Below the pieces are notes generated by a model. That model saw only the letters and a list, made by a program, of their open reading frames with translations, made no database searches and had not been told where the DNA came from. 64,000 nucleotides of DNA from a virus. Location: positions 32,001-96,000 of the IMG/VR virus record IMGVR_UViG_3300012352_000355; one strand, written 5' to 3'. The position numbers and the translations under genes are program-made. Positions 1-5,905 of this stretch are shown here, one piece after another (the first letter of the stretch is position 1; every line of letters starts with the position of its first letter).

Positions 1-688
1 AGAGATCAATATGCCTAAAGTAACTGTAGATGAAGGTAACTTAGTTAACGTACCAGTTAAAGTATTGACTAACGGAAAGAACTTAGGTGCACTACAATTA
101 GACTTGCGTTATGACACTGCTTACTTAGAGTTTAAGAAAGTAGAAAACACTGAGAAGATGATGAAGTGGACTTCTTACTTGAACCCTTCTAACGGAATCA
201 TCTCTTGGGGAGCTGCTGATTTGACTAACGAGAACATGCTTAATGACGGAGAGCAAGTATTCACTCTTCAATTCATTGCTAAGAAGCCACAAGACTCTTG
301 GGCTACTGCAGCTTTGTGGACAGGTGCTAAATACGTAGGAGACAAAAACTCTAAAGACATGAACATTACCCCTGCTATGGGAGTAATTGAAGTACGTAGA
401 ATCAACAAAGGAGTTGTTTCACTTAATGATTTGAATTCTATTATCACTTTTCCTAACCCTACAGAAGGTCCAGTACAAATCCAATTCAAGATCAAAGAAG
501 ATAGTGAAGTAGACGTAGCTATCTCTGATGAGGTAGGAAGACGTGTACAAACGATTCTAAGCGAAAGAATGCCTGCAGGTAAGTACAAGTATAATACAAA
601 CCTAGATCGTCTTCCTAATGGCTTCTATGTGCTTTCTGTAACAACTCAAAAAGAAATCTTACACTCCAAAATAATCGTACAAAAATGA
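1..688 (+). CDS. Cohesin-like domain protein with C-terminal T9SS (Por) sorting domain; probably 5'-truncated by the window edge
   Basis: Frame is open from the window start (GAG ATC AAT ATG11). VNVPVKV..NLGALQLDLRYDTAYLEF resembles a cohesin beta-sandwich. FPNPTEG..I.DEVGRRV..LPNGFYVLSV..SKIIVQK matches the type A T9SS CTD pattern. Confidence 0.8.
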   Translation, partial: EINMPKVTVDEGNLVNVPVKVLTNGKNLGALQLDLRYDTAYLEFKKVENTEKMMKWTSYLNPSNGIISWGAADLTNENMLNDGEQVFTLQFIAKKPQDSWATAALWTGAKYVGDKNSKDMNITPAMGVIEVRRINKGVVSLNDLNSIITFPNPTEGPVQIQFKIKEDSEVDVAISDEVGRRVQTILSERMPAGKYKYNTNLDRLPNGFYVLSVTTQKEILHSKIIVQK

Positions 689-1035
689 ACATTAAAAAAG
701 CACTTGGTTTTAGCCAAGCAGAACCAGTAGTAGTAGATCCTAAGAATAGGTTCTATTATATGCTACAACAAATGCAAGCCAATCGTTGGAAAATTACAGC
801 TATCGTATTGGGCTTGTTTACTCTAATCATTGTCGGAATCAACGCAGCAGTATTCATGGGAGCTGCTATTGGTGAAGACTGGAAAGAAATGTTGCTTATC
901 CTTTTAGGTGCATTTGTAGGTAATCTGAACAAAGTAGTAGACTACTGGTTTAACTCAGAAGATCGTGACAAGATGTTGATCCAAAAAGTGGATGAGGAAG
1001 ACGGTGAATCATTATCAAACACAACTAATCCATAA
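685..1035 (+). CDS. Small two-TM membrane protein
   Basis: Hydrophobic segments ITAIVLGLFTLIIVGINAAVFM and MLLILLGAFVGNL; ATGA overlap with upstream gene. Confidence 0.75.
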   Translation: MNIKKALGFSQAEPVVVDPKNRFYYMLQQMQANRWKITAIVLGLFTLIIVGINAAVFMGAAIGEDWKEMLLILLGAFVGNLNKVVDYWFNSEDRDKMLIQKVDEEDGESLSNTTNP

Positions 1036-1039
1036 TATC

Positions 1040-1360
1040 ATGTCAGAAGAACAAGAAGAAAGCGTAATGTCGGCTACTAAGAAAGCTATCATTGGCGCAG
1101 TCACCACTGCTGTAACTGCAGGAGGTGCATGGTTCGCTACTCACTTTGGTGGTGGCGAAGAACCTAAAGAAGAAGCTAAAACAGAACAGAGTGCTGCTCC
1201 TGTTATTAACTTGAATCTAGAGAACAACAACACTAACCAGCAGAAACAATCTTCAGGTGGAACTACTACTATCATCAAAGAAAGAACAGTAGAGAAACCT
1301 GCAGCTCAACCTGCTGCTCCTGCAACCAAACCACAAGAGGAGGAATCTGATCCATGGTAA
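1040..1360 (+). CDS. Small membrane-anchored protein with Asn/Gln/Pro-rich tail
   Basis: Likely start ATG1040 (MSEEQ...) after the upstream stop; hydrophobic AIIGAVTTAVTAGGAWF; low-complexity NNNTNQQKQ and PAAQPAAP. Confidence 0.7.
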   Translation: MSEEQEESVMSATKKAIIGAVTTAVTAGGAWFATHFGGGEEPKEEAKTEQSAAPVINLNLENNNTNQQKQSSGGTTTIIKERTVEKPAAQPAAPATKPQEEESDPW

Positions 1361-1950
1361 AAACCTGTAATATATGTTTTGTAGAAAAGACTTTAGATGA
1401 TTTTTATAAATCTAAGTCTGGTAGAGACGGTCTGGAGTCTTTTTGTAAATTATGCAAAAGAGAGAAGTCTAGGAAAACTTATTTAGACAACAGAGAATAT
1501 AGACTACTACAAAGCAAATCATATTACTACTCTAATCACGAAAAACAAAAGGAAGTAAAAAGTAATTGGAAGAAGAATAATCCAGACTTAAACCGAGCAA
1601 TTAATAATGCCTGGGAAAGAAATAAGAGGAAGGAAGATAAATTCTGGGCTTGTAAAAAGGCACTAAGAACAAGATTTCTAGGAGCTTTGTCTGGAAGGGT
1701 GAAATCCGACTCTACTCTAAAACTAGTGGGACTACCTTCTTGGGACACATTAAAATTCTATCTGGAAACTCTTTGGTCTGAAAATATGTGTTGGAGTAAC
1801 TATGGTTATGGCGAAGGATGTTGGGTAATAGATCATATTATCCCACTAGCCTCTGCTTCTAGTTTAGAGGAATTGGAAAAACTTCAACACTATACTAACT
1901 TACAGCCTTTGTGGTGGAGGGATAATTTAATAAAAGGAACAAGTATATGA
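1354..1950 (+). CDS. HNH / endonuclease VII-like homing endonuclease
   Basis: N-terminal CxxC...CxxC; C-terminal W.IDHIIPLAS...HYTNLQPLW..DN..KG beta-beta-alpha-Me motif. Confidence 0.85.
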   Translation: MVKTCNICFVEKTLDDFYKSKSGRDGLESFCKLCKREKSRKTYLDNREYRLLQSKSYYYSNHEKQKEVKSNWKKNNPDLNRAINNAWERNKRKEDKFWACKKALRTRFLGALSGRVKSDSTLKLVGLPSWDTLKFYLETLWSENMCWSNYGYGEGCWVIDHIIPLASASSLEELEKLQHYTNLQPLWWRDNLIKGTSI

Positions 1951-2651
1951 AGACAGTAAAAAAATGGTTTAACAAGTTCATGGCTCTTGTAGTCTTGACC
2001 TTGGCAGGTTGTGGTTCTATGAAGACTACTACCGAAGAAGATAAAGTGGAGGTGAAAGACATCTCCACTGTATCTAATTATAGTGATTCTATTAAAAAAA
2101 CAGTACAAGTGGTAAGCGTAGATATGACCAAGGTACTTGCTCTTTATCCTGCTCTTCAGGAAAAGAACGTAGGTCTTGGATTTGCAGAATCTGTTTTGGA
2201 TTATTTGGATGAAACAAACAGATTTATATTTACGGAAGAAAAATCAGAGATCAAAGAAAGAATGGTCACTCAATTCAAAGCATCAAAGAAAGGCGTATTC
2301 GATGAACCAATTGATGGGAAAGGTAAGATTAAGCCTGCTCACTACTTTGTGTATGTTACTGTGGCTGATTTTGCTGTTGATGAAGACGAGCAAGTTGATG
2401 GCCTTAAGTCAAAAGTTGTTGTCACTACCTTCATACGTTTACAAGTTCGCTTTGTGGACGCTAAGACAGGTCAGATCTATATTGGATCTGGCGAAGGAGA
2501 GTCGACTAAGACTGGTGAATCATTCTTAAAATCTTTAGATGATATGAAGTTCTCTCAAAGCACAGTAGGTAAAGCTACACGTAAATCTTTGGAGACAGCT
2601 TGTACTAATGTGATTCAAAATCTCATTAAGTCAGGTGTATTTAAAAACTAA
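1947..2651 (+). CDS. CsgG/HfaB-like outer-membrane lipoprotein
   Basis: Lipobox LAGC. LGFAESVLDYLDETNRF.F.E, V.V.DF, and IRLQVRFVDAKTGQIYIGSGEG resemble the CsgG family. Confidence 0.75.
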   Translation: MKTVKKWFNKFMALVVLTLAGCGSMKTTTEEDKVEVKDISTVSNYSDSIKKTVQVVSVDMTKVLALYPALQEKNVGLGFAESVLDYLDETNRFIFTEEKSEIKERMVTQFKASKKGVFDEPIDGKGKIKPAHYFVYVTVADFAVDEDEQVDGLKSKVVVTTFIRLQVRFVDAKTGQIYIGSGEGESTKTGESFLKSLDDMKFSQSTVGKATRKSLETACTNVIQNLIKSGVFKN

Positions 2652-4119
2652 AATACTAATACTATTTATGATAGCTCTGTCTCTTCGGGGGCAGAGCTTT
2701 ATTTATTCGTACACAGATCCTTGTACTCAGGAGTTAAAGTTTATTAACGCAGACATGTCTAGTCCTATAGTAATTGCTTACTATGGACAGGTTAAGACTT
2801 TCTCCTACACAGAGTTACAAGATGGTACGTTTGATAATTGGATAAATAGTGTATATTTGAAGTATCAAAGTACATCACCCTGTCAAGGAGTTGGAGTAAC
2901 AACTACTACAACTACAACAACGAATACTACCCTAAACATTGTAAGCAATGTTATGAACCTAGGGGCTATTTCAAATGTTGGTAGTGTAAATGTAGATGTA
3001 GGCTCTAGCACCTCTTCAGGAACAAACATAGGAACAACAAAAACCAATAATAACAATGACAATCGAACTAGCTCTCGGAATCGTACTAGCAGTAGCTCTA
3101 GTCGTTCTGGTTCTTCTGGCAGCTCGTCAGGAGAAGGTGGACAATCAAGTGGTGGAGGAAACTCCTCAGAGACCCCAGGAACCTCAAGTGGAAACTCTCC
3201 AGACCCCAATCCAGGAAGCAGCGGAGAAGGTAATGGAGGAAGCAGTGGCTCCAGCTCCAGTTCCAGCTCCAGTAGTAGTGGAGGAAACTCCAGTGGTAGT
3301 GGAAGTAGTGGAAGTAGTAGCGGAAGCTCCCAAGGTGGAGGCGGAAGTGGTGGTAAAACCGAAGAAAAAACGGAAGTACAAACCGAGGAACCCACAGAAC
3401 AAAAAGTAGAGGAAACTAAAACTGAGACTCAAAAATCTCAGTCTTCTGGTACTGCAAAAGCTGCAGGAAAAGCTAAAGCCGAAGTTGCTAAGCCTGCGAT
3501 CTTAGTAACTGGTGATTTAGTTGGTATTCAGACTAAGTCTGATGGAGCACAAGATGCAAGAGGTACTGCCTCTTTTACTAGAGTAAAGGGAGACGGTACT
3601 TCTTCTCTTGGGTTTTCAGCCGACTACATGGTTAACGCTAGGATAGGAAATATCTCTTGCGTACGCTCTTGGATAGGAGCAAACAAAAAAGGAAACAAAC
3701 ACATTAGTGTTGTATCTGATGGACTTAGCATAATGCCTAAGTCAATGTCAAACACTCTTCTATTTGTAAGAGTTAATTCAGTTAAAAACTTTACAGCTCT
3801 CTACGGAGCAGCGGGAACTTACGGTAAACTATTTGGAGAAGAAATGATTTCTACTATTGCTATCGGAGGTTTTATGTACAAAGGTAAACTTACTAAAAGT
3901 ATAGATGCTACAATTATTGCAGCTGGTATCTACTCTCCGTACTCTAAGTATTACACAGAATCTATATTTGAGGCTAAGCCTATTGTGATTCCTTTCTTTA
4001 ACTTTACATACAGAATGACCAAGACTTTTGGCTTAGGTATTACTGGAGGAGGAACATATGTAGCAGGACAGGATATATTAAACTTTCAACTATTGATGGG
4101 AGCTAAGTTATTAATATGA
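2635..4119 (+). CDS. Exported protein: N-terminal domain, Ser/Gly-rich linker, C-terminal predicted beta-barrel
   Basis: Signal peptide ending LRG-Q; about 120-aa S/G linker; alternating amphipathic strands in the last ~200 aa (PFFNFTYRM, FGLGITGGG, FQLLMGAKLLI). Confidence 0.7.
   Translation: MYLKTKILILFMIALSLRGQSFIYSYTDPCTQELKFINADMSSPIVIAYYGQVKTFSYTELQDGTFDNWINSVYLKYQSTSPCQGVGVTTTTTTTTNTTLNIVSNVMNLGAISNVGSVNVDVGSSTSSGTNIGTTKTNNNNDNRTSSRNRTSSSSSRSGSSGSSSGEGGQSSGGGNSSETPGTSSGNSPDPNPGSSGEGNGGSSGSSSSSSSSSSGGNSSGSGSSGSSSGSSQGGGGSGGKTEEKTEVQTEEPTEQKVEETKTETQKSQSSGTAKAAGKAKAEVAKPAILVTGDLVGIQTKSDGAQDARGTASFTRVKGDGTSSLGFSADYMVNARIGNISCVRSWIGANKKGNKHISVVSDGLSIMPKSMSNTLLFVRVNSVKNFTALYGAAGTYGKLFGEEMISTIAIGGFMYKGKLTKSIDATIIAAGIYSPYSKYYTESIFEAKPIVIPFFNFTYRMTKTFGLGITGGGTYVAGQDILNFQLLMGAKLLI
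3056..3409 (+). CDS. Candidate nested (overprinted) single-pass membrane protein in the +1 frame
   Basis: A-rich leader AAAACCAATAATAACA-ATG; about 20-aa uninterrupted hydrophobic N-terminus; E/P/V-rich stalk; basic tail KPKKKRKYKPR; boundaries coincide with the host-frame low-complexity region. Confidence 0.5.
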   Translation: MTIELALGIVLAVALVVLVLLAARQEKVDNQVVEETPQRPQEPQVETLQTPIQEAAEKVMEEAVAPAPVPAPVVVEETPVVVEVVEVVAEAPKVEAEVVVKPKKKRKYKPRNPQNKK

Positions 4120-5099
4120 GGTGGGTTATTGTTCTATTCTTCTTTGTGAACGCACTGAGTGCACAATTCACTTATTCTGGGTACTTGTATAATGCAAATG
4201 GATCTGGGGCCAACAACGTAGCTGTAAAGCTGTATAGAAGAACAAACTCTACTATATCAGGATTCACCTCTCAAAACAACTATAATGGACACTCTTACTA
4301 TCGTTCTACAGGAACAGCCAACTGGACTACAGCTAAGTCTAACTGTGCTGCTATGGGTGGGCACTTAGTAACTGTTACTAGTTCAGGAGAAAATAATTTT
4401 CTATTTAACTTGTGGCCCTCAGGATGGATAGGATTGACAGATGAAGTTACTGAGGGAACTTGGAAATGGGTTACAGGAGAGACTTACTCTTACTCAAACT
4501 GGAACTCTGGAGAACCCAATAACTCAGGTAACGAAGATTATATTCAGTTTGTAGGTAGTGGTAAATGGAACGACTTAAATAATAATAATAGCTTGGCTTA
4601 CGTAATTGAGTTTGATTACATAGTAACAACCTCTTCCTGGGCCCTTTACAAAACAATCTATACTAACTCTTCGGGTTACTATTCTATCTCTGAGACTTAC
4701 GATCCTTCTAAGGAGTACTATATACAGATAGATGCTCCTACTAGAATTCAATCCTACACTACTTCAGATATACAAGGAGTCTCCAATACTATACTAGGAA
4801 GAACTACCAGGAATGGTTTGTCTTTTCATATGTTTGATGTTAATGACGATGGAGTAATTTCTATAGCAGATAAGTATTATGTAGCTGCGAGGAAAGCTGG
4901 CTTATTCTCTAGATGGAGAACAGCTCCTGATGTAAGGATCTTTACTACTGCTCAATACAATTCAATTAAAGCAGCAACAACAAACGTAAGAGCAACTTAT
5001 CCTGGAGTCACTACTCATACAACTTCTACTTTAACTAGTGGAGGAACTTTAAATCTCTACATAATAGCTCCTGGTTATGCTGGAGCAGTAACTTACTAA
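4116..5099 (+). CDS. Exported C-type lectin domain protein with dockerin/EF-hand-like motif
   Basis: Signal peptide LSA-Q; CTLD motifs NGHSYY, GGHLVTV, WIGLTD, EPNN, WND; later FDVNDDGVISIAD Ca-binding loop. Confidence 0.85.
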   Translation: MRWVIVLFFFVNALSAQFTYSGYLYNANGSGANNVAVKLYRRTNSTISGFTSQNNYNGHSYYRSTGTANWTTAKSNCAAMGGHLVTVTSSGENNFLFNLWPSGWIGLTDEVTEGTWKWVTGETYSYSNWNSGEPNNSGNEDYIQFVGSGKWNDLNNNNSLAYVIEFDYIVTTSSWALYKTIYTNSSGYYSISETYDPSKEYYIQIDAPTRIQSYTTSDIQGVSNTILGRTTRNGLSFHMFDVNDDGVISIADKYYVAARKAGLFSRWRTAPDVRIFTTAQYNSIKAATTNVRATYPGVTTHTTSTLTSGGTLNLYIIAPGYAGAVTY

Positions 5100-5108
5100 A
5101 CCTATAGG

Positions 5109-5139
5109 TTGCCAAAACTGTTTTATTTTTATACTTTTG
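5109..5139 (+). promoter_or_regulatory. Bacteroidota primary-sigma promoter (TTG-N20-TACTTTTG)
   Basis: Matches the TTG / TAnnTTTG (-33/-7) consensus 25 nt upstream of ATG5164. Confidence 0.65.
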
Positions 5140-5163
5140 GCAGAATATAAATTATCCTAAAAC

Positions 5164-5610
5164 ATGAAAAAACTATTTATACTTTCCGCTTTAGTCACTA
5201 TGATGACTTCTCTGAGTGCTCAATGCTATAAAGTTGACACTGTAACATCAATTGCTTCTGTAACAGAAATAGGAGGAAGACCTATAATCTTTGGAGCACA
5301 AACAACTCTAGAAGAGATTGCCTCCTCAAAGTACCAATTATGTAATGAGGGCAGTCCTATTTCAGGAACAATCAAATCCATTGCTATGCCTGAAGAACTC
5401 TTAAATATCGTAGGGTTACAGTTTCTCAAGAGAGACTATATTGTAGTCACTGAGATAAACTTAAATGGAGTAACTGTTCTTGGAGAGGCTAAAAAGACTG
5501 TCTATGTTAATGCTATGTTTGTTTCTGTAGAAGGTATTCCTCATAACAGAAAAGCTTATTCTAAGGCATTGGAGAAGTCTTTCAAGAATGGGTTTGAGAA
5601 TTTGAAATAG
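5164..5610 (+). CDS. Exported protein, possibly a distant CsgG/TolB-N-like fold
   Basis: Signal peptide LSA-Q; C-terminal helix RKAYSKALEKSF parallels STVGKATRKSLE of the CsgG-like gene. Confidence 0.65.
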   Translation: MKKLFILSALVTMMTSLSAQCYKVDTVTSIASVTEIGGRPIIFGAQTTLEEIASSKYQLCNEGSPISGTIKSIAMPEELLNIVGLQFLKRDYIVVTEINLNGVTVLGEAKKTVYVNAMFVSVEGIPHNRKAYSKALEKSFKNGFENLK

Positions 5611-5619
5611 TTTTCTTTC

Positions 5620-5905
5620 CTTCTCATTCTGAGAAGTAGTCTATTTTGACTTTCTATTCTAACTTATATTGCAGCAGTTTTTAACCAAATAGCTCTCGGA
5701 GCTAAGTCTCTGTTCTGTCCACTTATTGCCTACGGTCTATTACTTGTAGGTCAGAGCACTGCAAACTTCATTAGAACATTTTGACACTATCGGAGAAACC
5801 TCTTTTCACCTCTGAGGGCTACTCATACTATCCAACTTCTAGCAGATTACTTTTTAATCCTCGTCTGCGAACATTAAGAAATGGTGTCGGGGGATCAAAG
5901 ATAAA
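5620..5905. ncRNA. Candidate structured non-coding RNA
   Basis: About 350-nt stretch without an ORF of 60 aa or more, with several nested inverted repeats; minus-strand TATCTTTG -7 element at 5903-5896. Confidence 0.3.

Follow-up and report, generated by a model that had tools for sequence, protein, structure and literature searches.

The first 5,610 nt of a 64,000-nt phage window (bases 32,001–96,000 of a single 111,405-bp contig, IMG/VR virus record IMGVR_UViG_3300012352_000355) hold the 3' portion of a tightly packed gene run, a cassette that probably serves to attach an exchangeable sugar-binding protein to a cohesin scaffold in the envelope of the infected cell. The cassette order across related loci is a scaffold protein, a small anchor protein (t122), an optional small membrane protein (t116), a CsgG-fold protein, a stalked beta-barrel protein, a lectin protein and a small exported protein (p148). 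Positions given below are window positions unless L001 or L002 is named, and all features with window positions lie on the plus strand.

Conservation and mobility of the cassette

Viral contigs were scanned with the CsgG-fold gene using a narrowed alignment, which returned close relatives only (321 matches, from which 80 loci were retrieved). All 80 loci possessed the same gene set in the same order, down to 45% identity and between unrelated flanks, and 698 close protein clusters were present in a large protein database. A tblastn search further revealed the lectin and scaffold genes side by side in a cultured phage, the Flavobacterium myophage vB_FspM_immuto (hereafter immuto; host Flavobacterium sp. 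LMO8), where gp013–gp019 correspond one-to-one with the cassette genes at 25–47% identity. In immuto the cassette occupies a region of replication and nucleotide metabolism, well away from the structural genes and 5.7 kb from the endolysin, and its scaffold is split into an adaptor (gp014) and an anchor (gp015) bearing a cohesin and a C-terminal sorting domain (CTD). The cassette was also detected in a T4-like jumbo contig, with no endolysin within 8 kb.

In the prokaryote genome collection there were two matches, both on phage-like contigs. One of these, a 254-kb contig of a Bacteroidetes-labelled metagenome-assembled genome, was judged not to be bacterial, since genes for T4-type topoisomerase II and RNA ligase flank the cassette; a search of the same contig for the PF03354 terminase found nothing. 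Among 400 further genomes from the phylum of that metagenome-assembled genome there was one weak match (E 1e-7), and the cassette was otherwise not found in those searched. The first-pass annotation of the window, made from the sequence alone, had named a lack of co-conservation and a chimeric join with host DNA as points that would tell against its reading. The genes are co-conserved in the 80 viral loci and the cultured phage, with the single weak match in 400 genomes, and a chimeric join is contradicted by the recurrence of the block, both in the cultured phage and across hundreds of contigs of viral origin. Judged by this distribution, the cassette is a mobile phage accessory block found across podovirus, myovirus and jumbo-phage backbones, and one that is common in aquatic phages of lakes and brackish water. 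No description of the block was found in the literature on cohesin, dockerin, lectin or CsgG proteins in Flavobacterium or crAss-like phages; what is new here is the conserved gene set, together with the head swapping, the paralogy of p148 and the private HNH insertion described below.

The cohesin scaffold

The first reading frame of the window (positions 1–688) was found to be the 3' end of a 632-aa scaffold gene (L001:17790-19688, equivalent to window −1210 to 688). The cohesin and type IX secretion system (T9SS) sorting domain ascribed to it in the first-pass annotation were both borne out, although its true extent is greater and its start lies upstream of the window. The full protein consists, in order, of a signal peptide ending ASA-Q, a cohesin-like domain 1, a prealbumin-like domain, a dockerin-like module, cohesin 2 (about nt 2-391) and a type-A T9SS CTD (about nt 449-679). 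Cohesin 2 matched Pfam Cohesin (PF00963, cutoff 24.1 bits) at 2.3e-12 (47.7 bits) in the window fragment and 1e-15 (58.6 bits) in the full protein, and all ten matches in a profile search of PDB were cellulosomal cohesins (best E 6.8e-4). The CTD matched Por_Secre_tail at 1.9e-10 in the window fragment and 2e-09 in the full protein, with 41.3 and 38.1 bits for PF18962 (cutoff 27) and 32.1 bits for TIGR04183 (curated cutoff 23), so that both domains stand above the curated cutoffs in Pfam and NCBIfam.

The N-terminal domain 1 appears, by comparison with its homologues, to be a second, divergent cohesin: its own score for Pfam Cohesin (23.3 bits against 24.1) falls just under the family cutoff, while 12 of 14 homologues match at E<1 (best 4e-05). 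Alignment of domain 1 against cohesin 2 with hhalign was weak (E 0.075), and the domain 1 profile gave no cohesin match in PDB.

The lectin protein and its exchangeable heads

The 327-aa lectin protein (4116–5099) begins with a signal peptide ending LSA-Q. A C-type lectin domain (nt 4317-4604) is inserted in its split prealbumin-like sandwich, and a dockerin-like module (about nt 4761-4904) and a C-terminal domain come after. As the first-pass annotation had proposed, the lectin domain is of the C-type, with a Lectin_C (PF00059) match of 1.1e-16 (62 bits, cutoff 22.6) and with the EPN and WND motifs present; EPN is kept in all 16 lectin-only variants and WND in 15 of them. The protein has a single Cys and thus lacks the conserved disulfide pairs of C-type lectins. 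It is 47% identical to immuto gp013, and shares with the scaffold the combination of prealbumin-like domain and dockerin-like module.

In relatives, the same dockerin-bearing frame carries a Lectin_C, PA14, Laminin_G_3/pentaxin or unassigned head, and every assigned head has a lectin-type fold. Phages sharing at least 84% identity in the CsgG-fold gene comprised 16 with a C-type lectin, 9 with PA14 and 7 with an unknown head. This head swapping is the pattern that would be expected for a binding specificity under diversifying selection.

Dockerin-like module and predicted docking

The dockerin-like loop reported in the first-pass annotation belongs to a module that is indeed present, but family membership did not follow from its sequence: the lectin's module had no match to Pfam Dockerin (PF00404), and Dockerin_1 in the relative L007 gave E 0.0068 with 17.0 bits against a cutoff of 22.9. 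The second DxNxD..D calcium-binding loop of the module is intact and the first is degenerate. In a profile search of PDB the best matches were dockerins (E 0.05–6.8), with both helices of ScaB-type dockerins aligned.

A complex was modelled between scaffold residues 22–545 and the last 158 residues of the lectin protein, and scored 0.63 against 0.00 for the best control. That score was reached by 58 of 80 solved complexes and by 2 of 110 mismatched pairs, figures which serve as a rough guide since the complex was modelled with alignments made for this analysis. The model runs agreed in at least 96% of contacts, with a partner predicted local distance difference test (pLDDT) of at least 78. Contacts were predicted between lectin residues 216–229 and 243–263, which form the two dockerin-like helices, and scaffold residues 66–168. 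The scaffold surface involved is a sheet face belonging to cohesin-like domain 1, which is encoded before the window starts. The model supports, and does not show, docking of the lectin's dockerin-like module on cohesin-like domain 1. The cohesin-dockerin pairing suggested in the first-pass annotation is therefore retained as a predicted contact, but with domain 1 as the partner and not the cohesin at window positions 2-391. With adaptor and cohesin-CTD anchor as separate proteins in immuto, a cohesin-dockerin link would be required there, and this split form fits a three-tier chain in which the CTD-cohesin anchor holds the adaptor dockerin and the adaptor cohesin holds the lectin.

The CsgG-fold lipoprotein and its small paralogue

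The gene at 1947–2651 encodes a 234-aa CsgG-fold lipoprotein with the lipobox LAGC. The protein itself gave no match to Pfam CsgG (PF03783) at E<1; this family was matched by 17 of its 39 relatives, and the profile of those 39 matched E. coli CsgG in PDB at 1.1e-5. By its AlphaFold2 (AF2) model (pLDDT 82.8), the protein has the CsgG fold, with CsgG as the best match both in Foldseek (E 4.5e-7) and in VIA (Z 13.6, root-mean-square deviation (rmsd) 5.4, 184 residues aligned), and with LptE, PelC, FlgT and TraT following in VIA at Z 8-10; the fold classes ranking next after CsgG stood at 9-11. Its Atlas neighbours were viral clusters first and then CsgG/LpoB.

The first-pass annotation had proposed a CsgG-like pore with a lipobox. 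The fold and, in this phage, the lipobox were both found, but a CsgG-type pore is not supported by the sequences: across the family the counterpart of the first CsgG hairpin is both shortened and acidic, with DEDEQ at its tip, and the second hairpin region falls about 20 residues short of that in CsgG; several relatives, immuto gp017 and P0132 among them, have no lipobox. Searches of every cassette protein against Pfam and NCBIfam gave no match to the curli families CsgF, CsgE or CsgA.

The last gene of the run (5164–5610) encodes the 148-aa exported protein p148, with a signal peptide ending LSA-Q. Aligned with hhalign (A9 against A1), its family matched the CsgG-fold family at a probability of 95.2% (E 2.6e-8, 116 columns), and on this alignment p148 is a trimmed mini-paralogue of the CsgG-fold core. 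It is 28% identical to immuto gp019, and its Atlas neighbours were all viral.

The stalked barrel protein

A 494-aa protein with a signal peptide ending LRG-Q is encoded at 2635–4119, and its gene is conserved in 71 loci. The AF2 model consists of a small N-terminal domain with two invariant Cys and a helix (together nt 2695-2979), a disordered Ser/Gly/Thr/Asn spacer of about 170 aa (pLDDT below 50), and a 12-strand outer-membrane beta-barrel (nt 3496-4113, residues 288-493; pLDDT about 75-84). A beta-barrel had been put forward as a candidate in the first-pass annotation, and the model agrees: Foldseek returned outer-membrane barrels, and VIA gave the NalP translocator at Z 24.6 (rmsd 2.9, 229 aligned), with EspP (22.6), EstA (22.0), KdgM (18.5) and FapF (18.4) behind it and with KdgM/NanC also similar. 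Helix 85-115 aligned to the NalP pore helix at pLDDT 43-65, lying about 170 residues before the barrel, and the N-domain is under 100 aa. Assignment of the barrel to PorP/SprF or another T9SS component was rejected, there being no NCBIfam or Pfam match.

An uncertain candidate nested gene of 117 aa (3056–3409) occupies the +1 frame of the barrel spacer; its product would have a transmembrane (TM) segment, a stalk of Glu, Val and Pro, and a KPKKKRKYKPRN tail. The frame is intact (97-118 aa) in 28 close-lineage loci at 41-79% identity. Given the Ser/Gly codon usage, however, the +1 frame would be expected to stay open. The KPKKKRKYKPRN tail motif recurs in a free-standing 119-aa gene behind the holin-endolysin pair of locus L099; the match between the nested frame and this gene was strong without composition correction, whereas with correction there was no tblastn match at E 1e-3.

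Small membrane proteins and the HNH insertion

Two small TM proteins had been claimed in the first-pass annotation, and hydrophobic segments were seen in both, although that of t122 is weakly hydrophobic. In the 116-aa membrane protein t116 (685–1035), hydropathy shows one hydrophobic stretch (residues 34-64) and another that is weaker, and the C-terminal tail is acidic. The protein is optional, being present in 62 of 83 loci, and had no match among 50,697 cultured phage records, immuto included. Its sequences are 75–96% identical even where the neighbouring cassette genes are only 45–55% identical, and it changes position within the block; unusually strong constraint or recent exchange may be involved.

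The anchor protein t122 (992–1360, with its likely start at Met17, nt 1040) was present in all 83 loci, always immediately upstream of the CsgG-fold gene, and its identity with immuto gp016 is 43%. Its N-terminal segment, rich in Gly, Ala and Thr, is weakly hydrophobic and leads into an extended region rich in Pro, Glu and Lys, and there is a conserved NNNTNQQKQ motif and a C-terminal Trp. No coiled coil was predicted in t122, which is disordered and Pro/Glu/Lys-rich; a match to an Rz-like spanin PHROG was weak (E 0.068).

Between t122 and the CsgG-fold gene is an HNH/EndoVII-type homing endonuclease gene (1354–1950; phrog_1035, 5.3e-22). It lies on a 624-bp insertion (window 1338-1961) that is absent from loci L042, L005 and L006, which are otherwise 88-93% identical, and a homologue was found in just one other locus, L149. 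On this comparison the HNH gene is a private insertion outside the cassette proper, a correction to the first-pass annotation, which had counted it in the operon while setting it apart from the exported products. Insertions of 1.6-2.2 kb occur between t116 and t122 in L008-L010, L026-L028 and L034-L035, and none is found at that place here. The insertions in relatives, taken with the HNH insertion here, point to the t116/t122 junction as a hotspot for mobile genes.

Genomic setting

Eight open reading frames were found in the region (2-688, 5'-open; 685-1035; 992-1360; 1354-1950; 1947-2651; 2635-4119; 4116-5099; 5164-5610), and most of their junctions overlap by 4 to 17 nt, as expected of the tightly overlapping operon described in the first-pass annotation. 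The first gene begins 1.2 kb before the window. A 62-bp spacer at 5099-5161 separates the lectin gene from p148; in close relatives there is no spacer and the two genes abut. A terminator-like hairpin with a T-rich tail (5620–5636), found as a pattern match in a consensus scan, marks the probable 3' end of the run.

Genes for terminase, portal and major capsid proteins are located just downstream (phrog_6681, 1e-95; phrog_6547, 9e-101; phrog_11589, 2e-25), and the portal shows 24–30% identity with its counterparts in crAss-like phages that infect Bacteroides, Cellulophaga and Flavobacterium. By terminase, portal and capsid homology the source virus is a crAss-like phage (Crassvirales-related), and that designation from the first-pass annotation was upheld.

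Upstream of the window there are three tail-fibre genes (1612, 1904 and 1391 aa), followed by genes for a holin-like protein of 82 aa with two TM segments and a charged tail (L001:16456-16704), an endolysin-like protein of 195 aa (L001:16735-17322; phrog_3000 and phrog_33083) and an exported protein of 156 aa with a signal peptide ending CSS-Q and an HExxH motif (L001:17323-17793), and then by the scaffold gene. The 0.9-kb holin-endolysin pair directly upstream of the cassette is itself mobile, recurring at 85% nucleotide identity in L099, which is otherwise unrelated. In 53 of 83 loci the HExxH protein is found with the cassette, its gene lying on one strand or the other; a small secreted zincin is a possibility. 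A 193-aa EndoG/NUC1-like nuclease with a signal peptide is encoded outside the window (genome 9666-10247, L002); it is 60% identical to immuto gp012, and its gene is directly beside the cassette in immuto and 20 kb from the cassette here.

Substrates of Bacteroidota signal peptidase I typically have an N-terminal Gln. The three signal-peptide cleavage sites read directly from the window (LRG-Q, LSA-Q and LSA-Q) each place Gln at +1, as the first-pass annotation had observed, and this Gln is invariant across relatives (alignments A3 and A8). Together, the Gln following the signal peptides and the T9SS tag point to a Bacteroidota host, probably of the Flavobacterium type.

Proposed role and alternative explanations

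The reading that we consider to have an even chance of being right is of a mobile cassette whose products leave the Bacteroidota cytoplasm and place a lectin on a cohesin scaffold at the infected-cell envelope. The host T9SS would export the scaffold, which would be left on or near the cell surface. The lectin, carrying a Sec signal only, could join it either by binding in the periplasm and riding out, or by an outer-membrane route built from the 12-strand stalked barrel, the CsgG-fold lipoprotein, p148 and the inner-membrane anchor protein t122, and the envelope would become coated with glycan-binding heads. The pay-off is a guess: the heads may mask or cross-link surface glycans of the host, so that other phages are excluded and progeny are not lost on debris, and it is this masking or cross-linking that we favour, with low confidence. 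Head swapping would track the surface glycan type of the host strain. A more specific formulation, which we regard as doubtful though possible, is that of a self-contained, phage-borne outer-envelope machine of a novel type, in which a T9SS-delivered cohesin anchor, a dockerin-tagged exchangeable lectin and a CsgG-fold/stalked-barrel unit would recognise a surface glycan of the host and then seal the cell and its debris against phage adsorption, or take over from spanins in breaching the outer membrane, with lectin swapping following host glycan diversity.

Several observations weigh against display of a lectin on the scaffold. The CTD is the single indication that the scaffold would be surface-exposed through the host T9SS, and a lectin with a Sec signal only would still have to cross the outer membrane. 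The dockerin identity of its module lies below the sequence threshold, with a single intact calcium-binding loop, and the docking pass may reflect model memory of solved cohesin-dockerin complexes, and so likeness rather than affinity. The CsgG-fold protein is without amphipathic membrane hairpins and its lipobox is not conserved. In addition, the cassette is recurrently linked to holin and endolysin genes, which display does not explain.

That linkage leads to the main rival explanation, a role in lysis or release, in which the block would open or remodel the outer envelope together with the holin and endolysin, the anchor and CsgG-fold/barrel proteins replacing the spanin pair and the lectin-cohesin part tethering the assembly to the outer leaflet. 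The cassette here directly follows the holin-like, endolysin-like and exported HExxH genes and, of 36 endolysin-anchored loci flanked on both sides by at least 5 kb, the cassette is adjacent in 21, in three arrangements, and not in the other 15. What comes after the same holin-endolysin block (85% nucleotide identity) in L099 is a protein with a TM segment and a coiled coil, and then an exported protein, a spanin-like layout, but this block is all that L099 shares with the present phage, and L099 was rejected as a cassette-less 'sister' phage because the common part is the 0.9-kb holin-endolysin block only. The Gly/Ala/Thr-rich, weakly hydrophobic segment of t122 may resemble signal-anchor-release domains, and phage CsgG/CsgF has been proposed to time lysis (PMC9004378). 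Against this, t122 is without a coiled coil, the lipobox is missing in immuto and other relatives, and in immuto the cassette sits among replication genes at a distance of 5.7 kb from the endolysin, while in the jumbo contig there is no endolysin within 8 kb of it. With t122 disordered, and with a lipoprotein of 234 aa whose lipobox is unconserved, the pair does not have the features of two-component spanins, and the swappable lectin heads and T9SS tag are left unexplained; a lysis accessory is, in our estimation, unlikely. We rate as somewhat less likely still an adhesive role, or 'sibling capture', in which displayed lectins would bind neighbouring cells or particles and infected cells would clump with fresh hosts. 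It draws on the same anatomy as glycan masking (lectin heads, predicted docking and head swapping), from which it is indistinguishable by sequence, and has been proposed for phage curli-type genes (PMC7029224), but no clumping was seen with phage Melnitz, which has CsgG/CsgF (PMC9004378).

The two remaining explanations are much weaker. All of the domains are bacterial in type and the HNH insertion indicates that the region tolerates insertions, as might be expected of host-derived passenger genes (morons) without a joint function or of an assembly chimera with host DNA. This explanation is nevertheless largely refuted, and very improbable, given that all 80 loci, on unrelated phage backbones, keep one gene set and order, that the block occurs in a cultured, complete phage genome, that 400 genomes gave a single weak match, that both 'genome' matches lie on phage-like contigs, and that the block contains paralogous pairs of dockerin-like modules and of CsgG-fold genes. 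More improbable again is that the products are virion proteins, either glycan-binding fibre tips or decoration proteins on the particle. The block does come after three tail-fibre genes, and lectin-type heads are typical of receptor-binding proteins; however, all the products bear a mark of export or membrane insertion, be it a cleavable signal peptide, a lipobox or a membrane segment, and a T9SS tag is present on one. Phage particles are put together in the cytoplasm. Exported products are at odds with such assembly, as the first-pass annotation had argued from the signal peptides, and the immuto block is far from the structural genes.

Comparison with known systems and significance

The cassette resembles the cellulosome assemblies of Acetivibrio/Clostridium scaffoldins in that its cohesins match cellulosomal cohesins, its module aligns to the helices of ScaB-type dockerins, docking is predicted to occur via two helices, and the split form in immuto implies an anchor-adaptor-cargo chain. 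It differs in being phage-encoded and associated with Gram-negative Bacteroidota, in having a T9SS CTD as anchor and not an S-layer homology (SLH) or sortase signal, in carrying lectins and not enzymes as cargo, and in having one intact calcium-binding loop and dockerin and cohesin 1 scores below the family cutoffs. The flexible islands of 'Cryophage' encode variable type-A T9SS cargo, with a PA14 protein among it, for which an effect on the host surface has been suggested (Bellas et al. 2020, PMC7468147). These are alike in pairing phage genes that bear type-A T9SS sorting domains with a PA14 protein and with variation between phage variants, whereas there each enzyme or PA14 protein has its own CTD, and here one CTD is located on the cohesin scaffold, the variable lectin has none, and CsgG-fold, barrel and membrane proteins are added.

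Pelagimyophages and the Methylophilales phage Melnitz carry CsgG/CsgF ('curli', type VIII secretion) clusters, for which sibling capture or lysis timing has been proposed (PMC7029224, PMC9004378). As in the cassette, a CsgG-family gene lies in a variable phage region without curlin genes, but those phages infect Proteobacteria and keep CsgF, while the cassette has no CsgF, CsgE or CsgA matches, falls below Pfam CsgG, has acidic hairpins, and has cohesin, lectin and barrel proteins as partners. The barrel protein shares with type Va autotransporters (NalP, EspP, EstA) and FapF a C-terminal 12-strand barrel with an N-terminal extension, but has no beta-helical passenger and no sequence-family match, and about 170 disordered residues lie between the barrel and a helix whose placement in the pore is of low confidence. 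The lipoprotein and barrel pairs LptE-LptD and PelC-PelB of the outer membrane, and the exclusion lipoprotein TraT, are similar in that the 234-aa fold matches LptE (Z about 9.5), PelC (9.6) and TraT (8.2) and is encoded beside a barrel; these scores are lower than for CsgG, and the likeness is one of fold and gene adjacency.

If the proposed display is correct, cohesin-dockerin assembly would be used by viruses rather than by cellulolytic bacteria, and phages would load their own cargo onto the type IX secretion system of the host. The exchange of lectin heads suggests that glycan specificity in these phages has a second layer, apart from the virion, and a cultured system, immuto with Flavobacterium sp. 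LMO8, makes the question directly testable. Whatever its role, the abundance of the cassette makes it a widespread part of the interaction between phages and Bacteroidota in lakes and brackish water.

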